Source of the DNA: a virus
Taxonomy: Duplodnaviria > Caudoviricetes
Direction: 5' to 3' (one strand)
IMG/VR virus record: IMGVR_UViG_3300037722_000745
Location: 1-64,000 of that record
Length of the DNA: 64,000 bases
In this document: one piece after another, positions 1-64,000 of the stretch
Numbering within the stretch: the stretch's first letter is position 1
Layout: each line of letters starts with the position of its first letter
The notes under the pieces: model-generated
What the model was told of the DNA's origin: nothing
Database searches by the model: none
What the model saw: the letters and a program-made list of their open reading frames with translations, nothing else
Program-made: the position numbers and the translations under genes

Positions 1-257
1 CTTGAGGGAGGTGAAAGCCTCCCTCGTAATTGAAACGTTGAGGACGCGACGTCTGAAGTCAAAACCGCGTTGACCTTGAGGGAGGTGAAAGCCTCCCTCG
101 TAATTGAAACGTGTTCAAAAACTCGGGCGATCCCTTGCGCGCGTAGACTTGAGGGAGGTGAAAGCCTCCCTCGTAATTGAAACGTGAGAGTGGTCCCAGG
201 ATGCCAATCTCTCTGCCGGGACTTGAGGGAGGTGAAAGCCTCCCTCGTAATTGAAAC
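1..257 (+). CRISPR. CRISPR array 1 (4 repeats, 3 spacers; may continue left of the window)
   Basis: Identical 36-nt repeat CTTGAGGGAGGTGAAAGCCTCCCTCGTAATTGAAAC at 1, 75, 148, 222; unique spacers of 38, 37, 38 nt; repeat has a GAGGGAGG/CCTCCCTC stem, GAAA loop and ATTGAAAC 3' handle. Confidence 0.97.
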
Positions 258-4364: not shown

Positions 4365-6096
4365 TGGTGGCGCCCTCTGACAAGGCTCGAAGCGTTCGCT
4401 TGGCAGCTTCGCGCTTCGCTTCCTTCTTGGAAGTCGCCTTGCCCTCCGCCGCTACACCAAAGAATTCACAATTACACACAAACGATGCCTGAGGATCCCC
4501 CGAGGAAGAAAAGCTATAGGTGGGTAACGCATGCCCTCGGCCTTGGGCCCATTCCTGCAACTCTGAAATGGGGTCCTTCCCGGCAATGACAGGTGACACT
4601 ACTGTGGAGGGTGCAAGAGCGTGGTCGTCCAACTCCAACGCAAAGGCGGCACGCCCCGCGAGAAAGCGTAGGGCCGCATGTTGCTTCGCTTTCTTCTTCG
4701 TGGTGCCAAAGCCAATTGCCCGTTCCTCGCCTTGTTGGGCCGCACACTCGAACTGAGGGGGCGCTGAAGAGAGGGTCGTTTCGTGAAACTCAACCCCTTC
4801 CCAACCCATCTGTGATGCCATGGCGAGAACCGAGACCGCCAACTCAGGCTTCCCCTGCAGGTATTGGACTGCCGCTCGTCGCAGGGGAACCCAGTCTTCG
4901 GGCGCCTCTGTGAAGGCCAAGGTGATGCAGACGAGAGGAAGCTGGTTGTCTCCTAGACGTCGCTCGTACTCGTCTATCAAACCCTCGCTGGGACAACCCC
5001 CTGAACGAGCTTCTACTTTGACAACGCGTTCCAGCTGTTTGTCGTTCAGATGACGTAAGCGTCCCCGCTCAACACGGCGTTGGGCGACCCGCGTTGCCGT
5101 GTTCTTCATGTGATTGGCTTTGGTCCGTCGTAGTTCCTCTAGCCCTGTGTTGATGCGTTCCGCTAGCTCGTCAAGCTGTGACTTATCACGAGGGTAAGGT
5201 CCACCAAGAAGATGCGCCCGCAGTTGCCCGTGGTTGAGCAAGTCGGGGTAGCGTCGGATCGGACTGGTAGCGTGCAGGTAGGCCGGTAGGTTCAGCCCAT
5301 AGTGCCCCGTGAGGGTGGCTCCGTAATGTGCTCGATCGAGCAGTAGGTGTGTCCGCTGGCGGACCGTATCAAGACTCACCAACGGCGTGTGTAGAGCGTC
5401 CTCAATCTGGCGCATCAGCTCAGACCGATCGGGAGCCGCTGCCCGAGCCACGTGGTTGCGAAACAAAAGCGGAATGTCTTGCTCTACAGCGAACTCGGCC
5501 ACGGCAGAGTTCGCCAACACCATAAGCTCTTGGACAACGATGTAGCCCACGGTGGCTTCGTGCTTCTTAATTTGTCGGAGATGCCCCTCTTCCGTGGTGA
5601 CCCACCCCGTGTTTAAGTCATAGAGAGCGAGCGCTCCCTGCAGCCGTCGTTGATTCAGCAACTGGTGGCTCAGAGTCACTGCGTGACGAAGCATCTCGGT
5701 GAAGGGAGTGTCCTGCGTCAGCACTGTTGGGATCTGTTCGTAGGAGAGCTTGGCTCTACTCTTGATGGTCGTCAGTCCCAGGCGGGTGTCGATCCGTTCT
5801 AAGTCGTTGTCGAGCTGGATTTCGATCGCCAACACCCTTCGGATTTTGTTCGGCCAAAGAGATAGGGTGGTCTCAGCCTGCCGGGGGAGCATGGGCAGAG
5901 TCCTGTTGGGTAGGTAACGGGACACAATGAGGTCCCGGGCCCGAAGATCGTCTTCGGAGTTAGGAGGGATTTCAGCCGCGGCATCGGCAATGTATATGAA
6001 GATCTTCCAACGATCTTCATATCTTTCGACCCACAGGGCGTCGTCCATATCCCGGGTCTCACGGGCGTCTATCGTAACAGCGGGCAAATTTCCCAT
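4318..6096 (-). CDS. RNase II/R (RNB) exoribonuclease with two C-terminal dsRNA-binding domains
   Basis: TIDARETRDMDDAL, TLPMLP, VQELMVLAN, HYGLNLPAYLHATSPIRRYPDL; dsRBDs ending FGTTKKKAKQHAA and KDPISELQEWAQ...GKATSKKEAKREAA. Probable start ATG 6096. Confidence 0.92.
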   Translation of the reverse strand: MGNLPAVTIDARETRDMDDALWVERYEDRWKIFIYIADAAAEIPPNSEDDLRARDLIVSRYLPNRTLPMLPRQAETTLSLWPNKIRRVLAIEIQLDNDLERIDTRLGLTTIKSRAKLSYEQIPTVLTQDTPFTEMLRHAVTLSHQLLNQRRLQGALALYDLNTGWVTTEEGHLRQIKKHEATVGYIVVQELMVLANSAVAEFAVEQDIPLLFRNHVARAAAPDRSELMRQIEDALHTPLVSLDTVRQRTHLLLDRAHYGATLTGHYGLNLPAYLHATSPIRRYPDLLNHGQLRAHLLGGPYPRDKSQLDELAERINTGLEELRRTKANHMKNTATRVAQRRVERGRLRHLNDKQLERVVKVEARSGGCPSEGLIDEYERRLGDNQLPLVCITLAFTEAPEDWVPLRRAAVQYLQGKPELAVSVLAMASQMGWEGVEFHETTLSSAPPQFECAAQQGEERAIGFGTTKKKAKQHAALRFLAGRAAFALELDDHALAPSTVVSPVIAGKDPISELQEWAQGRGHALPTYSFSSSGDPQASFVCNCEFFGVAAEGKATSKKEAKREAAKRTLRALSEGATNDPSLRTSASPNQSN

Positions 6097-6180
6097 TTTC
6101 TTTTTAGATTTAGCCGGGCTCCGGTGTAATACTTTCAACTCATCCCGTACTCTTTACCACGAGAGGGATGGATACACCGC

Positions 6181-6849
6181 ATGAGCCCAGACGTAGAAAA
6201 ATATCGGCGAGGTACCACTCGGGTGGAAGCGATCATCCTGAACATTGCTGGGTTCAGCGGGTTGGAGGCTCTTCCAGAGATCCGCGCTCGCTACAGTGAG
6301 CCGGGTCGTTTCTACCACACATGGGGGCACGCTATCGCCGTACTCGGCCGGGTCAACTACGTCTGCGAAGCCTTCTCTGGGGACGACTTGGCTCCCTTCA
6401 CACATGCTGATTTGCGACGGGCCGCCCTGCTCCACGATGTGATCTACGACGTGACGAAAGGCAGCCCACGGAACGAACAAGAGAGCGCCGCCTACGCCGC
6501 GACAGTGTTCTCGGATCCGGAGCGCTGCCAAGAGTTGATTCTGGCGACCGCAGAGCACGGCAAACCGGAAGCCGTCTCATTCCCCCTACCCGTGGCTCTC
6601 TTCCTCGATTCCGACTTGGCTTTCGCGTTCGCAGAAGAACGCTGGGAGAGTTTCGAGCAACGAAACCACGAGATCGAGCAAGAGTACATGCAGCACTTCG
6701 GTGCCATGGAAGTGCGGCGGGGGCGCCTTGCATTCCTACAACGTCTTCAGGGACAGCCTCACCTGTTCCTGACCGAGTATTTCCGAGAGCGCTTCGAGGC
6801 CAAGGCTCGCGAGCACCTGGGGCGCCTCATCGAGACGTACGAAGGGTAA
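6181..6849 (+). CDS. HD-superfamily metal-dependent phosphohydrolase (COG4339-like)
   Basis: RFYHTWGH, LLHDVIYD, NEQESA, LILAT..H, FLDSDLA, IEQEY, GRLAFL. Confidence 0.85.
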   Translation: MSPDVEKYRRGTTRVEAIILNIAGFSGLEALPEIRARYSEPGRFYHTWGHAIAVLGRVNYVCEAFSGDDLAPFTHADLRRAALLHDVIYDVTKGSPRNEQESAAYAATVFSDPERCQELILATAEHGKPEAVSFPLPVALFLDSDLAFAFAEERWESFEQRNHEIEQEYMQHFGAMEVRRGRLAFLQRLQGQPHLFLTEYFRERFEAKAREHLGRLIETYEG

Positions 6850-6852
6850 AGC

Positions 6853-7044
6853 ATGAGCGATGACGCCGGAACAATTCGATACGCCTCCGCGGGAGGCGAA
6901 GTCACCGTGATCCTGATCGGCTGCCAGTTTCTCTGCACTGCATGCGAGCAGTGGAAGCCGGGAGGGGAGTTCGGACTTCGGCGGATGCAGGACGGCAGCA
7001 TCCGTAACCAACCGCAGTGTAAGCCGTGCCGAGGGGAATACTGA
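6853..7044 (+). CDS. small Zn-finger protein
   Basis: CTAC..WKP..EF...CKPC; co-oriented and tightly packed. Confidence 0.6.
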   Translation: MSDDAGTIRYASAGGEVTVILIGCQFLCTACEQWKPGGEFGLRRMQDGSIRNQPQCKPCRGEY

Positions 7045-8147
7045 TGACTTACGACTGGAGCAACTACCACGGCAATCTGAAGAAGTGGCTGCCTGAGCGA
7101 ACTATCTACCTGACCCGCCACGGCAGCCACGCCTACGGCACGAACTTGCCGACCAGCGACCTGGACATCCGCGGCGTCACCATCGCTCCGATCCACTACT
7201 ACCTCGGAATCAGCGAGACGTTCGAGCAAGCTCTCCAGTCGAAGCCCGACGACTTCACGGTCTTCGACATCCGCAAGTTCGTGAAACTCGCGGCCGACGC
7301 CAACCCCAACGCTCTGGAGATCCTCTTCACCGATCCCGAGGATCACCTGCTGGTCACCCCGGCATCCGAGAAGCTGTTCGCTGCACGGCAGCACTTCCTG
7401 AGCAAGAAGGCCAAGCACACCTTCTCGGGTTACGCCCGAGCACAGATGAAGCGGATCCAGGGGCACTATCGGTGGCTCAAGGACCCGCCCAAGGCCCCGC
7501 CGACCCGGGCCGATTTCGGGCTACCCGAACGGACAGTCATCCCCGCAGACCAGCTCGCAGCGGCCCAGGCGGCCATCCAGAAGCAGATCGACCAGTGGGC
7601 CTGGCACGAGATGGAAGGGGTCGACCCTGCCATCCGCCAAGCTCTTCAAGACGAGTTCGCCCGCAGACTCGCTGAGATCACCCTCTGGGGTGAAGACGAG
7701 GTAGGCGATAAGACGTGGCGAGCCGCTTCTCGAGCGGTGGGCTATGACGCCAACTTCATCGAGCTACTGGACATGGAGCGCCGATACACGACCAAGCTCC
7801 GCGAGTGGCAGAATTACCAGAAGTGGCTCCGGGAGCGGAACCCAGCTCGTGCTGAATTGGAAGCTAAGTACGGAATGGACACCAAACACGCATCGCACCT
7901 CGTGCGTATCACTCGCATGTGCCGGGAGCTGTTGACCGAGGGTGTCGTTCGGGTTCGCCGGCCGGATGCTGCGGAGCTGCTGGCAATCCGCAACGGCGCC
8001 TGGACCTACGAAGAGCTGCTGGAGTACAGCGAACGTCAGGATGCAGAGCTGAACGAGCTGGTCAAGACTTCGACGCTGCCCAAGCAGCCAAACCGCAAGG
8101 CCCTCGACCAGCTCTGTATCGATCTGATTCAAGGGGCCAACGCATGA
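7044..8147 (+). CDS. pol-beta superfamily nucleotidyltransferase (RlaP-like)
   Basis: HGSHAYGTNLPTSDLDIRGV, ANPNALEIL, TFSGYARAQ, DTKHASHLVRI, LLAIRNGAW; ATGA overlap with the upstream gene. Confidence 0.88.
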   Translation: MTYDWSNYHGNLKKWLPERTIYLTRHGSHAYGTNLPTSDLDIRGVTIAPIHYYLGISETFEQALQSKPDDFTVFDIRKFVKLAADANPNALEILFTDPEDHLLVTPASEKLFAARQHFLSKKAKHTFSGYARAQMKRIQGHYRWLKDPPKAPPTRADFGLPERTVIPADQLAAAQAAIQKQIDQWAWHEMEGVDPAIRQALQDEFARRLAEITLWGEDEVGDKTWRAASRAVGYDANFIELLDMERRYTTKLREWQNYQKWLRERNPARAELEAKYGMDTKHASHLVRITRMCRELLTEGVVRVRRPDAAELLAIRNGAWTYEELLEYSERQDAELNELVKTSTLPKQPNRKALDQLCIDLIQGANA

Positions 8148-14303: not shown

Positions 14304-16455
14304 CTTTGAGGTAGGTGTCTTCTAGACCCGGTATAAGATATTGGCTATTAAGGGTAGTGGGTTCGTGGCCCACTTTCGCAGCCGCCAATTCTACAGCGTC
14401 CTTGAATTCTTTCTTCAACTGTTCTGCCTTCTTGGCCTTATCCTTAGGTAAAGGACCGCCTTTAGTCCGTGTCTGTCTTAAGGAAGATCTAACTTCGTCA
14501 TTGGCGTGGTAGCCGCGAATGTCCTTAGCCGTTGCGCCGAAGGGTTCGAGATAGGCGTTGACCTTCTCGGCGGTAACACAACCGTCGTCCCACGACAGAA
14601 CGCACGTGTCATCGCCTTCGAGCGAATTGTAAGCTTCACGTAGCGCCTTGCGGATGCCGGCGTCAGTGACTCTCTTCTCGTGCTTAACACCGGACTTGCC
14701 CGTGTACCGGATGAGCGCCCCGTCGGACTTGAAACTCACGTGGCGGCGTTGCCAACCCGTTACACCGAAGTGCCCCTCACTCGCAGACTCGTCGTTGCCG
14801 ACCCGTTCGTACGTGTGGTCCATGAGGGCGACCGCCAAAGCCGTCAACTTCGTCTCCGGGTCGCTCGACTTCAGATCCCGCTTGACCTGGGCTCGCAGCT
14901 TCTTGAGCGCCTTTCCGAGCTTGGCGATGCGCTCGGCCTTCTTATTGTTGCGCAGGGCCACCTGGCGCTCACTATAGAGGTAGATGGTGTTGCCTTTATC
15001 AGACTCCCGCTTGGCTTTGTATCTGGCGACAACAGTCTTGGCGTCAATCATAGGCCACCATACAGAGCTAGAATTTCCTTGGCCCAAGCAACTTTGTCCT
15101 CGACTCTCTGGCCCCTCTCGCATCTGCATGTAGGGCCTCTCGCAATGCCTTCGCATCGGAGAAAACTCGAAACTGGCCACGACCTGAGCTGATAGTAGGC
15201 TGCGCCCCAGAGCGGCTTTCTGGATGGTGCGGTCAATCCCTCCCCGTTTGGCAATTCGAAGACCTGCGACACGGAGATTGGGCAGAATCATCTGCACCCA
15301 ATGACGGATCAGCGGGTCAACTGTTCGAGGCCCATACCCAATGAGCATCCCCAGAGCCTCGCAGAAGGCTTCCTCTGGGTTCTTGCCTGCATACCCGGTG
15401 ACGGGGTTCTGCGGAACCGCGAAGGTATCCCCGCGGGCGACAGCAGCCTCGAAGTCCTCCTTCTTGCGGATTTCCCGCACCTCGCCGTGCCCGAACCCGA
15501 GCAGTTCAAGCTGGATGGCCAACGTCGGGTCCACGTCCTTGAGCAATTCACCCATTTCGTGGATCCACGCACCGTCAGGCCACAAGCGCAACGCCTTGTC
15601 GATATCGATCGGTCCGTAATTACCACGAATCGCGGTATCCCAGAACGTGCGATCCTTCTGCCCTAAGTACACCTTGTAGATGTGGTGGCCCATCTCATGC
15701 GCGAGGATCTTCGCGAGCATCTCGGGGCGCTCCCCTGCCGTCAACGACACCTCGATGTACCGACGCTCGTACCGACCCCCTTCATCAAGTTTCCCAACTA
15801 CCTTGGCGTGGATAGGTAGCATCATCCTGAGCATCGGCGGAAACACCTTGCCCGCCCTCTTCCGAAAGATCCGTAGACCGGCTCGGAAGCGCTCCCAGCT
15901 CCCCGCGTACTCACCCTCGATGTCTCCAATTACACGAACCTGGAAACCCTCGACCTCTACCTGGTCAACGTTGGTGATCGGCACATCGTAGTGCTCACGC
16001 CCGATCTCCGACAGGAAGTCGTCCAAGACCTTCCACAGCTCGCGGGCGATCCGCTTGAGCTTGGCGTCCCACTTCTTACTCGCTCGCTGATACTGCTGGA
16101 AGGCCCCTTCCTCCGTGAAATTCTCGTTGTATTTGTGCGGACGGTCCAGCGGCATCTCGTTCAGTGCGAGGTAGAAGTCCCAGCCGGTCTTCCGAAGCTT
16201 CCGCTCGTGCCAGTCTCTGAGATGCTCCGAGATCGAGTCGTCATATTTGAGCTGTTGGTTGACGAATTCGTCGAAGTAGATGCGGTTGAAGCGGTTGCGA
16301 AAAACCTTGAACGCCTCCCGCAGCTCGCTCGCCTGCTTGTAGTCTCGGACCCGCGGGATGTTCTTCGAGAGTTGCAGGAAGTCCTTCCGAAGCTTCTGGA
16401 TGGCGTCTCGGTCGATGCGAATCGACCGGGCAAGGACGGCAGCGGCAGTGGTCAT
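14287..16455 (-). CDS. zincin metallopeptidase-like domain in frame with DNA topoisomerase IB (topo domain 14287-15051, possibly with its own start)
   Basis: LAHEMGHH and YAGKNPEEAFCEAL; topo IB motifs TYERVGN, YTGKSG, TAKDIRGYHA, VGHEPTTLNSQYL; probable start ATG 16455 overlaps the upstream stop. Confidence 0.88.
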   Translation of the reverse strand: MTTAAAVLARSIRIDRDAIQKLRKDFLQLSKNIPRVRDYKQASELREAFKVFRNRFNRIYFDEFVNQQLKYDDSISEHLRDWHERKLRKTGWDFYLALNEMPLDRPHKYNENFTEEGAFQQYQRASKKWDAKLKRIARELWKVLDDFLSEIGREHYDVPITNVDQVEVEGFQVRVIGDIEGEYAGSWERFRAGLRIFRKRAGKVFPPMLRMMLPIHAKVVGKLDEGGRYERRYIEVSLTAGERPEMLAKILAHEMGHHIYKVYLGQKDRTFWDTAIRGNYGPIDIDKALRLWPDGAWIHEMGELLKDVDPTLAIQLELLGFGHGEVREIRKKEDFEAAVARGDTFAVPQNPVTGYAGKNPEEAFCEALGMLIGYGPRTVDPLIRHWVQMILPNLRVAGLRIAKRGGIDRTIQKAALGRSLLSAQVVASFEFSPMRRHCERPYMQMREGPESRGQSCLGQGNSSSVWWPMIDAKTVVARYKAKRESDKGNTIYLYSERQVALRNNKKAERIAKLGKALKKLRAQVKRDLKSSDPETKLTALAVALMDHTYERVGNDESASEGHFGVTGWQRRHVSFKSDGALIRYTGKSGVKHEKRVTDAGIRKALREAYNSLEGDDTCVLSWDDGCVTAEKVNAYLEPFGATAKDIRGYHANDEVRSSLRQTRTKGGPLPKDKAKKAEQLKKEFKDAVELAAAKVGHEPTTLNSQYLIPGLEDTYLKDGKIL

Positions 16456-17840
16456 GTGACGAGCCTCCAGCGGATCTGTACCTGGTCTGGCATGGGCTTG
16501 CCCAGAACGAAAAAGGCGAACGTCTCGGCGAAGTCTTCCGACACGTTCGTTTTGGCGTAAGCGCTCACCGTCTCCACAGAGGCGTTGTTGTCCGGGCTCA
16601 CATATCGCTGCTTCGGCCGAACGAAGTTCTTCTCGACCCAACCTTCACCACGTTCATGGGCGGCGACGAGGTCTTTCTGACGTTGGTTTCCAAACACGTA
16701 GCTAACCCAAGCGAGGAAGGGGGCCTCTAAAGAGGGATCCGACAAGAATCCTACCGCCCTGCGCGGCGAGAACTGAGCCTTCACGAGCGCCTGGAACATG
16801 TCCTGGCGCCCCTTAAGGTCGATACCCTTGCCACTGTAGGCGTCCTCGTAGGCATCCCGCTGGGCGGCGCTGAGCATTTTGTTCCACCACCGGTGGCCCA
16901 GCTCGTGGACCAACGTGTGGAGATCGTCGAAACGCTTTCGGGACTCGACGTTTAGCTTCAAGAGGTCGGCCGACTCGACGTACTTACCTGCAAAGCCCTT
17001 GCCGCTCTTGGCCCCCACCAGCTCAACCTTGCCGTACAGGGCCTTACCGAACCCCTTGGACTTGAGCCGGTCGGCCGCGGTGTCCAGGACCGCAAGGCTT
17101 TCAGCGTACTCGCTGGAACGGTAACCGTACTTGTTGACGATCTGGAAGGGCCCGTGCCGGAACTCCTTCTCGACCTCCGTGTACTCCTGAAGGCGGTTCT
17201 GAACCCGACGCAGGGAGGCCAGAGTCTCGGCGATGGAGTCTAGCGACAAGTTGATCCACGCCCGGGTCTCCCCATCCTCCTGATTGACGTAGCGCGACTC
17301 GAACGGGTACTGGAGCCGGCGAAGCCAGCTCAAGACGTTCTTCATCTTCCGTTGCTCGTCCTGGCGCTCGAACCGAACTCCCTCGAACATCGTCGCCAGG
17401 GGCTCCAGCATCTCCCCTAACCGGACAAAGAGGCGACGGGCTGTCGGGATGTCTCCTTCCTCGATAGCGCGCTCGATGGCCGGCCGGGCCTCGGTGAAGT
17501 CGCGAATATAGTCCGCCACGGGGCGGACCTCTGTTCCTGCGAACCGCATCACGACCCGCTGCGACTCTGAGGCGAGCTTGTCCAGGGCCTTAGTCTCAGG
17601 CACCGCTGCGGCCGGCAGCTTCCGAATCGTGTAGAGCCCCATGATCCGGTTGCTCTTGCGCCCCTTTGGGACGGGCTCGATCTCGATGTAGGGGATCCCG
17701 CTGGAGTCTAGGAACATGCGGACGATTTTGCCGCGCTTGTTCTTGAACTTTCCATACAGGATGTACTCGCCCGGTTTGAAGTAGGCAATCAGGTGGCGGG
17801 TGGCTACGCGGGCGGCCGGCTGGCGGAGTTCCTCGAACAT
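16452..17840 (-). CDS. modular protein with SH3/KOW-like N-domain and zincin (HELGH) domain
   Basis: LVHELGHRWW, YAKTNVSEDFAETF; VATRH and VVMRF motif copies. Confidence 0.78.
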   Translation of the reverse strand: MFEELRQPAARVATRHLIAYFKPGEYILYGKFKNKRGKIVRMFLDSSGIPYIEIEPVPKGRKSNRIMGLYTIRKLPAAAVPETKALDKLASESQRVVMRFAGTEVRPVADYIRDFTEARPAIERAIEEGDIPTARRLFVRLGEMLEPLATMFEGVRFERQDEQRKMKNVLSWLRRLQYPFESRYVNQEDGETRAWINLSLDSIAETLASLRRVQNRLQEYTEVEKEFRHGPFQIVNKYGYRSSEYAESLAVLDTAADRLKSKGFGKALYGKVELVGAKSGKGFAGKYVESADLLKLNVESRKRFDDLHTLVHELGHRWWNKMLSAAQRDAYEDAYSGKGIDLKGRQDMFQALVKAQFSPRRAVGFLSDPSLEAPFLAWVSYVFGNQRQKDLVAAHERGEGWVEKNFVRPKQRYVSPDNNASVETVSAYAKTNVSEDFAETFAFFVLGKPMPDQVQIRWRLVT

Positions 17841-59700: not shown

Positions 59701-61062
59701 GTAATGGACGAAGGTCCCTTGGGGCCCACCGCCGGAGCGCTTCCAGTTGGCTCGCAGCTCACCCCTCAGCAGCTTGTCGACGTTGTTCTGAAGCAGCGCC
59801 GTGTAGTCCATCCCGTTAGGATTGACCGAGTGCCGTAAGTCGAGAATATCAGTGAGAGCGATCTGGTCTGAAAACAGCTCGTCGGGGCGCCCAGAAATGA
59901 CACGGATCTCAGACCCCGCCAAGTGAGCTTCCCCGATCGTTCCGTTGGTGCCTCGAGTCAGACCATTCAGCGTCGTACCGGTGATCGATGTGTAGGTCAG
60001 GATCTCGTCGCCGATTTGAATCGTCACCGCCGTCGCCGGGGAGGCGGGGAGCGGAATATTCGTGACTGAAGCAAGCGTCGCCGAAGTGGCCGTTGCGTTG
60101 AGATCCGCCGCAAGGGTTGGAACGGTAGAGAACGTCTTAACGCCTGTGCGATCGACTGCCGTCGGGTTGCGGTCGAACCCCCCATTCAAGTTCTGCGATG
60201 GGTTTCCATTCCAACCAATCGAGTTCCTACGGAACACCACCGCGATCGGAACGGCATAGCTATAGCCATCCACGGTCCCTAGCGAGGAACTAGTCCCATC
60301 ACCCGCACGCCACAACCCAGGGTCCCCCAGCTCCTCCCGCATGTTTTCAAACGTGAACGCAGTCACAGCCGAAGCCGCACCCTGCGCTTTGACAACCACA
60401 GGATCGAAGCCATCCGGGTATGTCGTCAGACCTACCAAGCCCTTGACCACACGGATGCGGTACTGGATTTGAACTCGCTGCTCTGTCTCAAACCCAAGAG
60501 CAGGATCGAGCAAATCATCTGGGAGAAAAGAGCTGCCAGACTCGACATTACCGTAGCGGTAGATGCCACTAGCAGACGGCTTGTTTGTAGTTGACGGGTT
60601 AGGCTGAATCCTGGCCTTCCACACCTCCAAAAAGACGAAGTCAATCCGGAAGTCCCCTGAATTGGAGGGAGGGGGATCAAGCGCAATGACGTTCGTCGTG
60701 TCGGTGTCATTAGGACTCCCGGGAGGAGTGCCCGTCCGTGTGCCTGTCACCGGGATCAACCACCCGTTGACGTTCGCCCACATGATAGATCGCTGCTCAC
60801 CGGCTCGCTGCGGACCGAACTTGAACCAGTTCGACCATGTGGAGTGGGTTTGGTAACTTGCCTGGGGGTTGGTCTCGTTACCCAAAAACCCAGAAGGTGT
60901 GCCGCGCAAAACCGCAGACTGCAAAGCTTCGTGAGCCAACTGCTGTTGCAGTATCAGAGCTGCGTCGGTTGGAGGCTTGCCCTGCTGCCAAATAGTGGTG
61001 ATGTACTGCGTGTCTGCCGATTGCAGGACACGGGACACTCCGGGACCTAGATTGTCGCTCAT
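56743..61062 (-). CDS. large virion structural protein (tail/baseplate-like), 1439 aa
   Basis: Gly/Thr/Ser-rich beta protein with IQIGDEILTYT..LTRGTNGT..AHLAG module common in tail proteins. Confidence 0.7.
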   Translation of the reverse strand: MSDNLGPGVSRVLQSADTQYITTIWQQGKPPTDAALILQQQLAHEALQSAVLRGTPSGFLGNETNPQASYQTHSTWSNWFKFGPQRAGEQRSIMWANVNGWLIPVTGTRTGTPPGSPNDTDTTNVIALDPPPSNSGDFRIDFVFLEVWKARIQPNPSTTNKPSASGIYRYGNVESGSSFLPDDLLDPALGFETEQRVQIQYRIRVVKGLVGLTTYPDGFDPVVVKAQGAASAVTAFTFENMREELGDPGLWRAGDGTSSSLGTVDGYSYAVPIAVVFRRNSIGWNGNPSQNLNGGFDRNPTAVDRTGVKTFSTVPTLAADLNATATSATLASVTNIPLPASPATAVTIQIGDEILTYTSITGTTLNGLTRGTNGTIGEAHLAGSEIRVISGRPDELFSDQIALTDILDLRHSVNPNGMDYTALLQNNVDKLLRGELRANWKRSGGGPQGTFVHYQDAIQSAAVSLGVTQLDAPDNIRTVFSDAATIQPIECVVRPNSGVVPPGPGVAINEPWSLSLTVNTTNQTVGNQFTAGDIIEIPVNQLKTGLQAGATDQIRWLNDSVTGAVQLRLAGETGDLPSTMYTVTPAVPGPADNLIITLSGSFPSQLTTTASPRQLHIRVHAVYGPGRGLARRPDSLHNITYLNPSSLLMVQERGIPDTNHVARVAWAPLWAKYRTAEFNGLLPSITEMYADLGSKTVIATPFRRIEFPNLLTVDGDAANPVPTPKLTSATGFTSSANTPVFEDASGVGTTVGGDALVIPSGPGAGRYTILSVGATSYTLDRPVRAQATVGISYTTHSAQGVMPLNAVDGVTPKWTQTDPLGLFCSQSAGDPAFNNIYVSLPRHLVPGWGELNVPMIAEDGDFASGINYMIRSTPGAVVENQFNYIAYSNTSFRYSVFSQIDFASNPLSFNTAGVISGNQTAGMRFFTDSRGLGREGLELPPFYGAARLFGVYEAQDYISSSTPFTDERGPGGGGTATNLLRQAMRSGDGPPMWIEIDSDGDSTFILNANAIDITRSPNPIADFASGTYVVEAAVFGFDRGTFDLNSEARLILTRPGNVNAWDDVGSGGDPGAAGSREDNINKRVTGPSALLPGPATASDQILVNYSRTPYQGDAWGSQNSYIDLPYVPGPLMSDDAFDVVSTELDADNLTRPNEKALEVLASLSFATSLGTGRYSGDASDADLVFTNVAYEDPSVYPPSSGVDPRPKALPTNFAGDGPDIGTEYLGCTERLPLGALFRDKDFRGQHFGYTDVMAPLVYRNTVGSGQSTGLASPALEHHEVRLSTATSGVGSPGDVLVHVDGEANNFALDTNFRTHRGGSVFVASGPRPGGSVSLNNSVATATTDHVRTLQGRAMLVRNSVTNVGSNEASAGSELMMLILTSVYDAPIGSSAPTPIRIGTNGTGEGYAAADLYRIEGHPLVRNNTRMLIDSSAIPLTRKA

Positions 61063-61333
61063 CCCTGTTACCTTCTGATCCGATTTGCAAGCCCACTAGA
61101 CAGGCTGTCAAATGGGCCGGCTTATAGGGAGTTTCTCGGTTTTCGAGAGGCCCGGTGGTGTGTTACCCTCGGGAGTCTCTCGCATTCTGCGGGTTCTCTG
61201 AGAATTCAATAGGTTAGAAAGATCCGGATCCCGATCGGCCTCTGGATCCAAGGGGTCCCAACCCATGATCCCACAGGGGGGTCTCGCAAACCGCCTTGTG
61301 AACCTCCGAATTCACACGGTTTCTCAGAATCCC
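61063..61333 (+). promoter_or_regulatory. CRISPR leader, divergent from the structural gene
   Basis: About 270-nt non-coding region ending GGGGGGTCTCGCAAAC...CAGAATCCC before the first repeat; the variant repeat lies at the far end. Confidence 0.6.
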
Positions 61334-61884
61334 CTTGAGGGAGGTGAAAGCCTCCCTCGTAATTGAAACAAGACGGCGAAGGGCAACGCAACCTCGGAAC
61401 CTACGGGCTTGAGGGAGGTGAAAGCCTCCCTCGTAATTGAAACTGCTCGCTGAGTGATCGATCGAGATTGGTGGTGAAGCTTGAGGGAGGTGAAAGCCTC
61501 CCTCGTAATTGAAACCTGGAGCTGGGTAGCCGCTGCCTCCGCTGCCATGGCCCTGCTTGAGGGAGGTGAAAGCCTCCCTCGTAATTGAAACCAGGAAGCC
61601 CAGGCCGTCTACGCGTCGCAGAGCGACCCTTGAGGGAGGTGAAAGCCTCCCTCGTAATTGAAACCAGACAACTGAGTTCCTACGGAACACCACCGCGATC
61701 GGGCTTGAGGGAGGTGAAAGCCTCCCTCGTAATTGAAACGACGGGCGACGTCGTCGCTGGCCTGCCGGGATTCGGCTTGAGGGAGGTGAAAGCCTCCCTC
61801 GTAATTGAAACCAGGCGGCTGCGCTCCTTGACGGCGGCGACGAATCCGCTTGAGGTAGGCGGATGCCTACCTCGTAATTGAAAA
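61334..61884 (+). CRISPR. CRISPR array 2 (8 repeats, 7 spacers)
   Basis: Same repeat at 61334, 61408, 61480, 61556, 61629, 61704, 61776 and variant at 61849; spacers of 38, 36, 40, 37, 39, 36, 37 nt. Confidence 0.98.
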
Positions 61885-61938
61885 CTTTAAGATTTACCGA
61901 CCTTGAACTGTAATACTCTAGAGGGGGCCTAAAAAACC

Positions 61939-64000
61939 ATGACCAGATCCATTTTCGTTTTCTCTCTGATTCTAACCGCCTGTAGTACCGGGGGCCCTAT
62001 CGAACTACCCTCCTCCAAGGAAGGGTTCTCAGATGGAGGGGCTAGTTTCGTTGGCTCTGAACTTAGCGATGACGGGGGTAATAACCCAACGATCTCCGAC
62101 TCCAGCGTCACAGCCGACGGATCGTCTACAGCAGCCGACGGATCGTCTACAGACGCACACAAGCCAGAAGAAGCGGACGGGGGGGCCCCACCAGTCGATG
62201 CTGGGTCTCCCGCCGATGCGGACGCGGAGACAGACACCGAAGACGGAGGGGACTCCGATCTTCGTACTCCTGATGGGGGCGAAACAGAAACGGACGCGAC
62301 TCCCGACGACGATTGCCCAGGCTCTGGCCCGGGAGTAAAGTGTGAAGGTCGGGACAGATTCGCGTGCGTCTCCGGACAGTGGGTCATACAAGAGACTTGT
62401 GACCACACGTGTCAAGCAGGGGCTTGTGTAGGGGAGTGTGACCCGGGAAGCACGGACTGTTTGAACGAGCACCCGCGGACTTGTAACTCCAACGGGCTAT
62501 GGGACGTGGGTTTGGCTTGCTCGTTTGTATGCTCGGAAGGTTCCTGCGTAGGCGAGTGTGACCCCGGGGCCACCGACTGCCAAGGCGATGTGCCTCGAAC
62601 CTGCAACTCGCAAGGGCAGTGGGTAGAGAGTTCGGCCTGCGCGTTTGTATGCTCCGACGGAGCCTGCGTGGGGGTGTGTGAACCAGGCGATCGAAATTGC
62701 TCGGGAGACACTCCTCGTCAGTGCGATGCTTCGGGCCAGTGGGTCAACGAAGCCGCTTGTCCCTTCGTTTGCAGTGAAGGTGTGTGCTCCGGTGCATGCG
62801 ACCCAGGAGCAACAAGCTGCGCAGGGGACACCCCCCGTACGTGCAATGATTCCGGTGTGTGGGTCAACGGAACGACGTGTCCTTTCACATGCTCGGGAGG
62901 TTCGTGTACCGGGGTGTGTGAGCCTGGCGACCGTGATTGCTCGGGCCTGACACCCCGAAGCTGCAATGCCGCGGGGCAGTGGGTCAACGAGACCGCTTGT
63001 CCCTTCGTTTGTTCGGGAGAGGGCGTCTGTATCGGAAGCTGCACTCCGAACGACACTGATTGCCAGGGAGATGTCCCCCGGACTTGCAATTCGCAGGGTC
63101 AATGGGTGAGCGGTTCTGCCTGCCAGTTCGTGTGCTCTGACGGTGCCTGTACCGGCGTGTGCGAACCTGGCGATGTCCAGTGCTCGGGGAGCCAGATTCA
63201 AACCTGCAACTCGCAGGGCCAATGGGGCACTGCGGCCAACTGCCCAAGCGTGGCCGGTGCCAATGCTTACTGCCTGAACGACGCCTGCACCTTCGACTGC
63301 CAGCTCGACTACGACGATTGCGACGGCAACCCTGCCAACGGCTGCGAAGCCCACCTGGAGACCGACAGCAACAACTGCGGGAGCTGCGGACACTCTTGCT
63401 GCGGGGGTGCTTGTGGCAGCGGGACATGCGAGGTCTACGATTCCGGACTCCGCACCGTTTCCACCTGGGAGGTAGACTCCAACAGCATTTATACGACCGC
63501 CGTTAACGGTCAGACGGTGACCATCCAGCAGACACCACGTGAAGGGGGCGCCACATCGGCGATGGCCTCAATCACTGGCGACACAACATCCCCCCGGGTC
63601 ACCGATTTGGCCTCAAACGGAACCAACCTGTTTTGGAGCCTTCGAGAAGGGGGGGTGTTGTCGGTGCCGCTCGACGGTTCTGGACAGTACGAGTCCTGGT
63701 ACATAAACACCATCGACACATTCACCGTCAGTTCCAATCACGGGGCGTACACGTGGTACAACCTCTCAGCCACCGGAGAGCTATTGTTGGATGCTACTCG
63801 GGTTTACTGGTTCGGGACCAGCTCCGGTTTCGTCAACTGGAAGTGGCTGGTGACCCCCACACAGACCGGCGGGTCATTCGTGCTACCTGACGCTCCGACC
63901 CATCTAGTCTCAGATGGGGATTATATCTACGCGACGCCCCATACGGCACTGAATCCAATCAGCCGTCACAACCTTGCGTTCGACAACAACGAGAGCTTCG
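61939..64000 (+). CDS. myxobacterial-type Cys-rich repeat lipoprotein (runs off the window)
   Basis: MTRSIFVFSLILTAC lipobox; acidic DAG-rich linker; 40-aa six-Cys repeats; DCDGNPANGCE..NNCGSCG motif; open to 64000, so missing from the ORF track. Confidence 0.85.
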   Translation, partial: MTRSIFVFSLILTACSTGGPIELPSSKEGFSDGGASFVGSELSDDGGNNPTISDSSVTADGSSTAADGSSTDAHKPEEADGGAPPVDAGSPADADAETDTEDGGDSDLRTPDGGETETDATPDDDCPGSGPGVKCEGRDRFACVSGQWVIQETCDHTCQAGACVGECDPGSTDCLNEHPRTCNSNGLWDVGLACSFVCSEGSCVGECDPGATDCQGDVPRTCNSQGQWVESSACAFVCSDGACVGVCEPGDRNCSGDTPRQCDASGQWVNEAACPFVCSEGVCSGACDPGATSCAGDTPRTCNDSGVWVNGTTCPFTCSGGSCTGVCEPGDRDCSGLTPRSCNAAGQWVNETACPFVCSGEGVCIGSCTPNDTDCQGDVPRTCNSQGQWVSGSACQFVCSDGACTGVCEPGDVQCSGSQIQTCNSQGQWGTAANCPSVAGANAYCLNDACTFDCQLDYDDCDGNPANGCEAHLETDSNNCGSCGHSCCGGACGSGTCEVYDSGLRTVSTWEVDSNSIYTTAVNGQTVTIQQTPREGGATSAMASITGDTTSPRVTDLASNGTNLFWSLREGGVLSVPLDGSGQYESWYINTIDTFTVSSNHGAYTWYNLSATGELLLDATRVYWFGTSSGFVNWKWLVTPTQTGGSFVLPDAPTHLVSDGDYIYATPHTALNPISRHNLAFDNNESF
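62437..63243 (+). repeat. tandem ~120-nt coding repeats
   Basis: Six full and one partial copy of C[DE]PGxxxCxGxxPRxCxxxGQWVxxxxCxFxCSxGxCxG. Confidence 0.85.

Follow-up and report, generated by a model that had tools for sequence, protein, structure and literature searches.

The CRISPR array at 61334–61884 in the genome of a huge phage ends in a repeat that differs from its seven identical predecessors at 6 of 36 bases and still forms a complete nine-pair hairpin. We consider it reasonably probable that this repeat is an old allele, its fold retained owing to its role as 3′ hairpin of the last crRNA. The window, by which we mean the whole 64,000-nt stretch analysed, is the start of a 323-kb record (IMGVR_UViG_3300037722_000745) that is 68% complete and carries 42 tRNA genes and a tmRNA. 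Homologous arrays in related phages vary in the same manner on a much larger scale, and they link the repeat to a helicase-linked type I-C variant.

The last repeat is diverged and stable

The seven identical 36-nt repeats start at 61334, 61408, 61480, 61556, 61629, 61704 and 61776 and, with spacers 1–6, occupy 61334–61811 (+ strand). They are preceded by a leader (61138–61333, + strand) that shares 90–93% identity with the leaders of two other arrays of the same phage. This shared leader upstream of 61334, together with a wobble pair that works only on the + strand, orients the array on that strand, so the repeat starting at 61849 is the trailer repeat and hence the oldest. It lies opposite the leader, follows a last spacer of normal length (37 nt, 61812–61848, + strand), and the array ends with it. 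Its changes (61849–61884, + strand), numbered by repeat position, are 8 G>T, 12 T>C, 14 A>G, 16 A>T, 21 C>A and 36 C>A. Five of the six fall inside a 14-nt core (P about 0.02). The change at position 36 can alternatively be read as one extra A ahead of C, and this last base may mark the boundary to native phage DNA or have arisen by slippage of a single A.

The same trailer repeat was found in JGI contigs from two other assemblies (L064 and L065) and, with zero differences, in Logan contigs of three sequencing runs (X1, X4 and X5, from 2020 and 2025). It is therefore a stable feature and not an assembly error. None of the sequencing runs listed as carrying the sequence is an RNA run. A second array of the phage does vary in length, with 10 repeats in L064 and 14 in the window's genome (L001); the absent block has duplicated spacers, and the disparity could reflect strain variation or an assembly difference.

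A search of 24 related records with the last spacer found no target. Spacer 5 has a near-match with five mismatches in the phage's own structural gene (60209–60250, + strand), the mismatches sitting at the PAM-side end, and TTC stands in front of it. TTC is the usual type I-C PAM; a 5′-TTC flank at targets was seen in this single case.

The hairpin and the 3′ tag are retained

Folding placed the 9-bp hairpin of the trailer repeat at 61852–61873 (+ strand), with the 5′ arm at 61852–61860, the loop at 61861–61864 and the 3′ arm at 61865–61873. The four basal pairs are unchanged. One pair has been compensated, the G-C pair at repeat positions 8 and 21 (61856/61869) having become T-A, and the loop-closing U-G wobble has become C-G through the change at position 12 (61860). 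Two loop bases are also altered. All nine stem pairs are thus Watson–Crick in the variant, exactly the base changes and the retained stem that the initial annotation had described. The minimum free energy is −17.5 kcal/mol, compared with −18.2 kcal/mol for the consensus, with z = −5.5, and the variant stem pairs with a probability of about 1.0 when the whole array transcript is folded. When three substitutions were placed in the stem in all possible ways, 1.9% of the outcomes kept every pair and 0.2% gave a perfect Watson–Crick stem, under a null model that assumes independent point mutation. The intact fold exceeds what chance would leave after independent point decay.

Position 25 of the 36-nt repeat is the last of the stem, and the 11 nt that follow (61874–61884, + strand) are single-stranded, as in type I-C repeats; the first 10 are unchanged. 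Eleven nucleotides is the length of the type I-C crRNA 5′ tag, and Cas5d products carry a tag of this length (PMC5965381). The single-stranded part is thus longer than the 8-nt Cas6 handle assumed in the initial annotation. The same observations bear on the idea that the hairpin has turned into an intrinsic terminator ending the array transcript, to which we give practically no weight: a stable GC-rich stem does stand at the array end with AT-rich DNA after it, but there is no U-tract on either strand, a terminator scan made no call, and the 8 nt after the variant stem are those of the internal repeats.

Relatives link the repeat to a type I-C variant

Pfam scans of the phage's own 68%-complete record detected no cas1, cas5, cas6, cas7 or RAMP genes, with no match in this incomplete record to PF01867, PF10040 or RAMP models. 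tblastn with the proteins of a relative (G024, below) found no cas genes in it either, and look-ups of Cas7 homologues matched other phages or bacteria and none in the window's phage. Since no cas genes were found in this partial record, we assigned the enzyme through relatives.

A search for the tandem tag led to G024 (IMGVR_UViG_3300033489_000001), a complete 412-kb relative in which the ortholog of a neighbouring structural gene is 70% identical. In G024, cas5c, cas8c, cas7c and an SF2 helicase gene are followed downstream by an array of homologous repeats, and the same operon accompanies related arrays in G011, G018, L106, L133 and L135. cas1 is absent from G024, G011 and G018, and no cas6 was found in the surroundings of the operons in the relatives. 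A helicase-linked type I-C variant has been reported in huge phages that carry CasΦ (Cas12j) (Al-Shayeb 2020, PMC7162821). We infer, by way of these relatives, that the array belongs to this variant family.

The cutting enzyme is then likely to be a Cas5c-type nuclease that would read the stem base and the 3′ tag, both of which are intact in the trailer repeat except for the last base. [quoted passage not shown] The Tyr and His that are catalytic in canonical Cas5d are missing from the G024 Cas5c (L100 2–691, − strand), as is also remarked in PMC7162821, and the nuclease could therefore come from the host.

These relatives also bear on the suggestion, made in the initial annotation, that the variant is cut by a different Cas6, here widened to include its capture by recombination from another host system in which it is the main repeat. 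An import is conceivable because several repeat alleles occur in blocks in this phage, including a swap of the 4-base loop at the leader end of two arrays. The repeat family adjoins Cas5c-type operons in which no cas6 was found, however, and the tag and stem base are unchanged. The variant was searched for as a main repeat elsewhere, as the initial annotation had proposed, and neither it nor the consensus occurs as a repeat in viral contigs, GTDB genomes or metagenomes, where partial-pattern matches were few, single and outside arrays; with even the consensus missing from the three collections, the blank result for the variant counts for little. We hold this origin to be highly improbable.

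INPHARED and PLSDB gave matches at chance level, and Rfam gave no match to a CRISPR family. Neither the leader nor the repeat pattern was found in 23 related phages. An RNA model run on related phages recovered one weak non-repeat match in G008 and a lone repeat-like element in G009; the latter, a hairpin with the same 11-nt tag, sits directly ahead of a start codon (L069 1500–1545), and the G009 record holds no second exact copy of the tag.

Repeats of related phages vary under an almost constant fold

In G024 the array at L099 9028–13629 (− strand) has more than 60 repeats, most of the older ones differing, with compensated stems; the 61 scored repeats comprise 39 distinct hairpins. Among 40 distinct rows, 97.5% of cells are paired and 44 are double-change cells, although the paired cells cannot be counted as independent events and a prior filter of the scored repeats for pairing inflates the percentage. 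None of 500 shuffles reached this pairing, and registers slid along the repeat paired 54–71% of cells. Identical alleles recur at non-adjacent positions in this array, which suggests that spacer-repeat units have been shuffled.

The G011 array (L111 8525–10870) begins with 11 near-uniform leader-side repeats and then gives way abruptly to a patchwork in which stems are almost perfectly compensated and spacers irregular in length. Its trailer repeats hold 17 double Watson–Crick changes; their three basal pairs are fixed, and 102 of 105 variant cells are perfect. Divergence rises towards the trailer in L106 (rho 0.59). In L133, two arrays (5200–7170 and 14720–16680) flank the type I-C variant operon and interleave at least seven loop alleles on the same 8-bp stem as in the window's phage; one of their repeats has the same G>T change at stem position 5, uncompensated. 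Across four arrays, G-U wobbles outnumber A-C mismatches by 38 to 20 (nominal P 0.025), and in L133 by 12 to 1 and 16 to 1. An excess of G-U over A-C is as expected for selection acting on + strand RNA. We take the pair counts of the family as supportive of such selection, not as proof.

The null model and the extensive covariation in homologous arrays argue for a structure kept by selection rather than decaying, as the initial annotation had proposed; that part of its claim is supported, but one repeat taken alone cannot separate selection from correction by template switching. In such an event, a point change in one arm would be copied to the other during replication, giving a perfect palindrome with no selection required. 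The route is economical here. All three stem changes follow from a point mutation at position 21 and a single symmetric 5-nt switch, with only the two loop bases and the last base left over. With its G-U wobble lost, the variant is now perfectly palindromic as DNA; a repeat copy at genome position 286131 has its entire hairpin inverted, and the G011 variants are almost all perfect. Template switches that restore Watson–Crick pairs, enriched at 4-nt GNRA loops, have been described (PMC8794818). Repair of a DNA palindrome, however, predicts no strand bias, and the relatives keep G-U far more than A-C; moreover, the changes spare the stem base and tag that the enzyme would read. As a full account of the trailer repeat, we see template switching as possible but rather unlikely. 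The two processes are compatible: switching may supply variants and selection may keep them.

Other copies of the repeat in the same genome and the insertion site

Four arrays of the repeat, along with several lone copies, occur in the 323-kb record, with a shared leader of about 195 nt. A 721-aa open reading frame with a Cas12-type C-terminus adjoins an array of a different repeat in the same genome; this second system is of the Cas12j type, a label that rests on size and context. Two of the phage's other arrays (L001 4599–5153 and L002 8215–8323) have an alternative 4-base loop allele in their leader-side repeats and consensus-loop repeats on the trailer side. At L004 5971–6167 (genome 285970–286166), two oppositely oriented repeats surround a leader fragment, and the inverted-hairpin copy at 286131 is one of them; it has the same extra A at its end as the trailer repeat. 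Derivation of the trailer variant from an inverted alternative-loop allele was considered and not preferred, as it takes as many steps as derivation from the consensus. The second array of the window's phage occupies the site before a 206-aa gene at which G024 has a lone repeat, just ahead of the ortholog (L102 15444–15480; G024 343443–343479).

The record starts inside the array at window positions 1–257, of which L070 shows at least eight repeats. This array closes with an A/C-rich motif resembling that at the end of the cas-linked G024 array, and the cas operon missing from the record may therefore stand immediately before the contig start. This array, which has the same consensus, and the array at genome 120–121 kb both end in perfect repeats.

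That last observation speaks against divergence having been favoured in its own right, as a block to recombination at the trailer repeat and collapse of the array, with the hairpin kept for processing. An anti-recombination role has been proposed for terminal repeat polymorphisms generally (PMC8047081), and the five changes clustered in the 14-nt core do interrupt the longest identical stretch. Survival of a divergent trailer is nevertheless expected passively, and we think such a role improbable.

Downstream of the array, a gene for a Cys-rich lipoprotein (813 aa; 61939–64000, + strand, extending past the window) begins 54 nt after the trailer repeat. It occupies the same place in related phages that have no arrays, and the idea of the gene as cargo that arrived with the arrays was rejected for this reason. 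The DNA directly 3′ of the repeat (61885–61915, + strand) loosely resembles the upstream region in these array-less relatives (weak alignment, 54% mean column identity) and is probably native phage DNA with a promoter-like stretch of the lipoprotein gene. Because array-less relatives have the gene there, with loosely similar DNA upstream, a leader-plus-array block was probably inserted into a native intergenic region ahead of it.

The hairpin might have a second job on the lipoprotein transcript, in which cleavage of the last repeat would release or stabilise an mRNA read through from the leader; the gene follows on the same strand with no terminator between. The gene seems, however, to retain its own promoter-like stretch, as in the array-less relatives, and a consensus repeat would serve such cleavage equally well, leaving the changes unexplained. 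We judge this very unlikely.

Discussion

Our preferred reading remains that of an old allele kept in shape by crRNA processing. The trailer repeat would be the oldest unit of the leader-plus-array block inserted before the native lipoprotein gene. It is known that the leader-side repeat serves as template for new units and that recombination exchanges internal repeats. Trailer repeats are known to be rarely replaced, often polymorphic and stable (PMC8047081), so this one would have retained an older allele. Selection for processing would permit change in the loop and upper stem as long as pairing persists, and the observed pattern is of this kind: the four basal pairs and 10 of the 11 tag bases are intact, and the changes lie in the upper stem and the loop. 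They spare the parts read by a Cas5c enzyme, and homologous arrays vary alike. Processing probably still releases the last crRNA, one of the options raised in the initial annotation, its 3′ hairpin supplied by the variant repeat.

More tentatively, and more probably wrong than right, one may picture the arrays of the type I-C variant, which lack Cas1–Cas2, as holding a shuffled pool of repeat alleles of differing sequence but the same fold. Template switching could generate these alleles and co-infecting phages could exchange them as spacer-repeat units, giving arrays that resist collapse by recombination, the terminal repeat described here being a relic of the pool. If so, the family would naturally supply non-repetitive repeats from which stable multiplex arrays could be built.

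A single diverged trailer repeat is a common feature, and this one is a small, expected but real example of a fold probably kept for guide-RNA cutting. It is also a natural data point on the needs of the variant's still uncharacterised processing enzyme, suggesting that it requires a stem with an intact base plus the 11-nt tag but leaves the loop and upper stem free to change. Of greater interest is the patchwork of compensated repeats across the family, which opens such substrate rules to testing and provides a clean setting for telling selection on RNA from template-switch mutation. Diverged trailer repeats, compensatory stems and the phage type I-C variant are all already published. Our literature search found no paper describing covarying repeats within arrays of this variant, and repeat variation within its arrays was not met in the consulted part of PMC7162821.

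The helicase-linked type I-C variant described there likewise belongs to a huge phage with a Cas12j-like gene and a separate array of its own. In the relatives, homologous repeats lie beside cas5c–cas8c–cas7c–helicase, and the 11-nt tag is alike, as is TTC in front of the single spacer near-match, whereas here the cas operon is absent from the incomplete 68% record. Polymorphic terminal repeats as reviewed in PMC8047081 resemble ours in that the last repeat differs from a uniform array and is stable across samples. Theirs typically change at the 3′ end, weakening the symmetry; in our repeat, five of six substitutions are in the hairpin core, and the hairpin is kept. The terminal repeats of Cas12a arrays, which block extraneous crRNAs (PMC6610086), are likewise under selection of their own, but in the opposite direction: since the last type V repeat has no spacer to serve, those changes break the structure, whereas the last repeat of a type I array provides the last crRNA with its 3′ hairpin. 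Template-switch hairpin mutations (PMC8794818) share the simultaneous paired changes, the loss of G-U and the 4-nt GNRA parent loop; they were traced in rRNA and miRNA histories, whereas here such an event is a possibility for one repeat. Finally, structured CRISPR repeats are known to covary (Kunin 2007, PMC1896005), with paired substitutions, G-U pairs and relaxed loops as in our arrays. That covariation was seen between organisms, and here it is seen between the repeats of one array.
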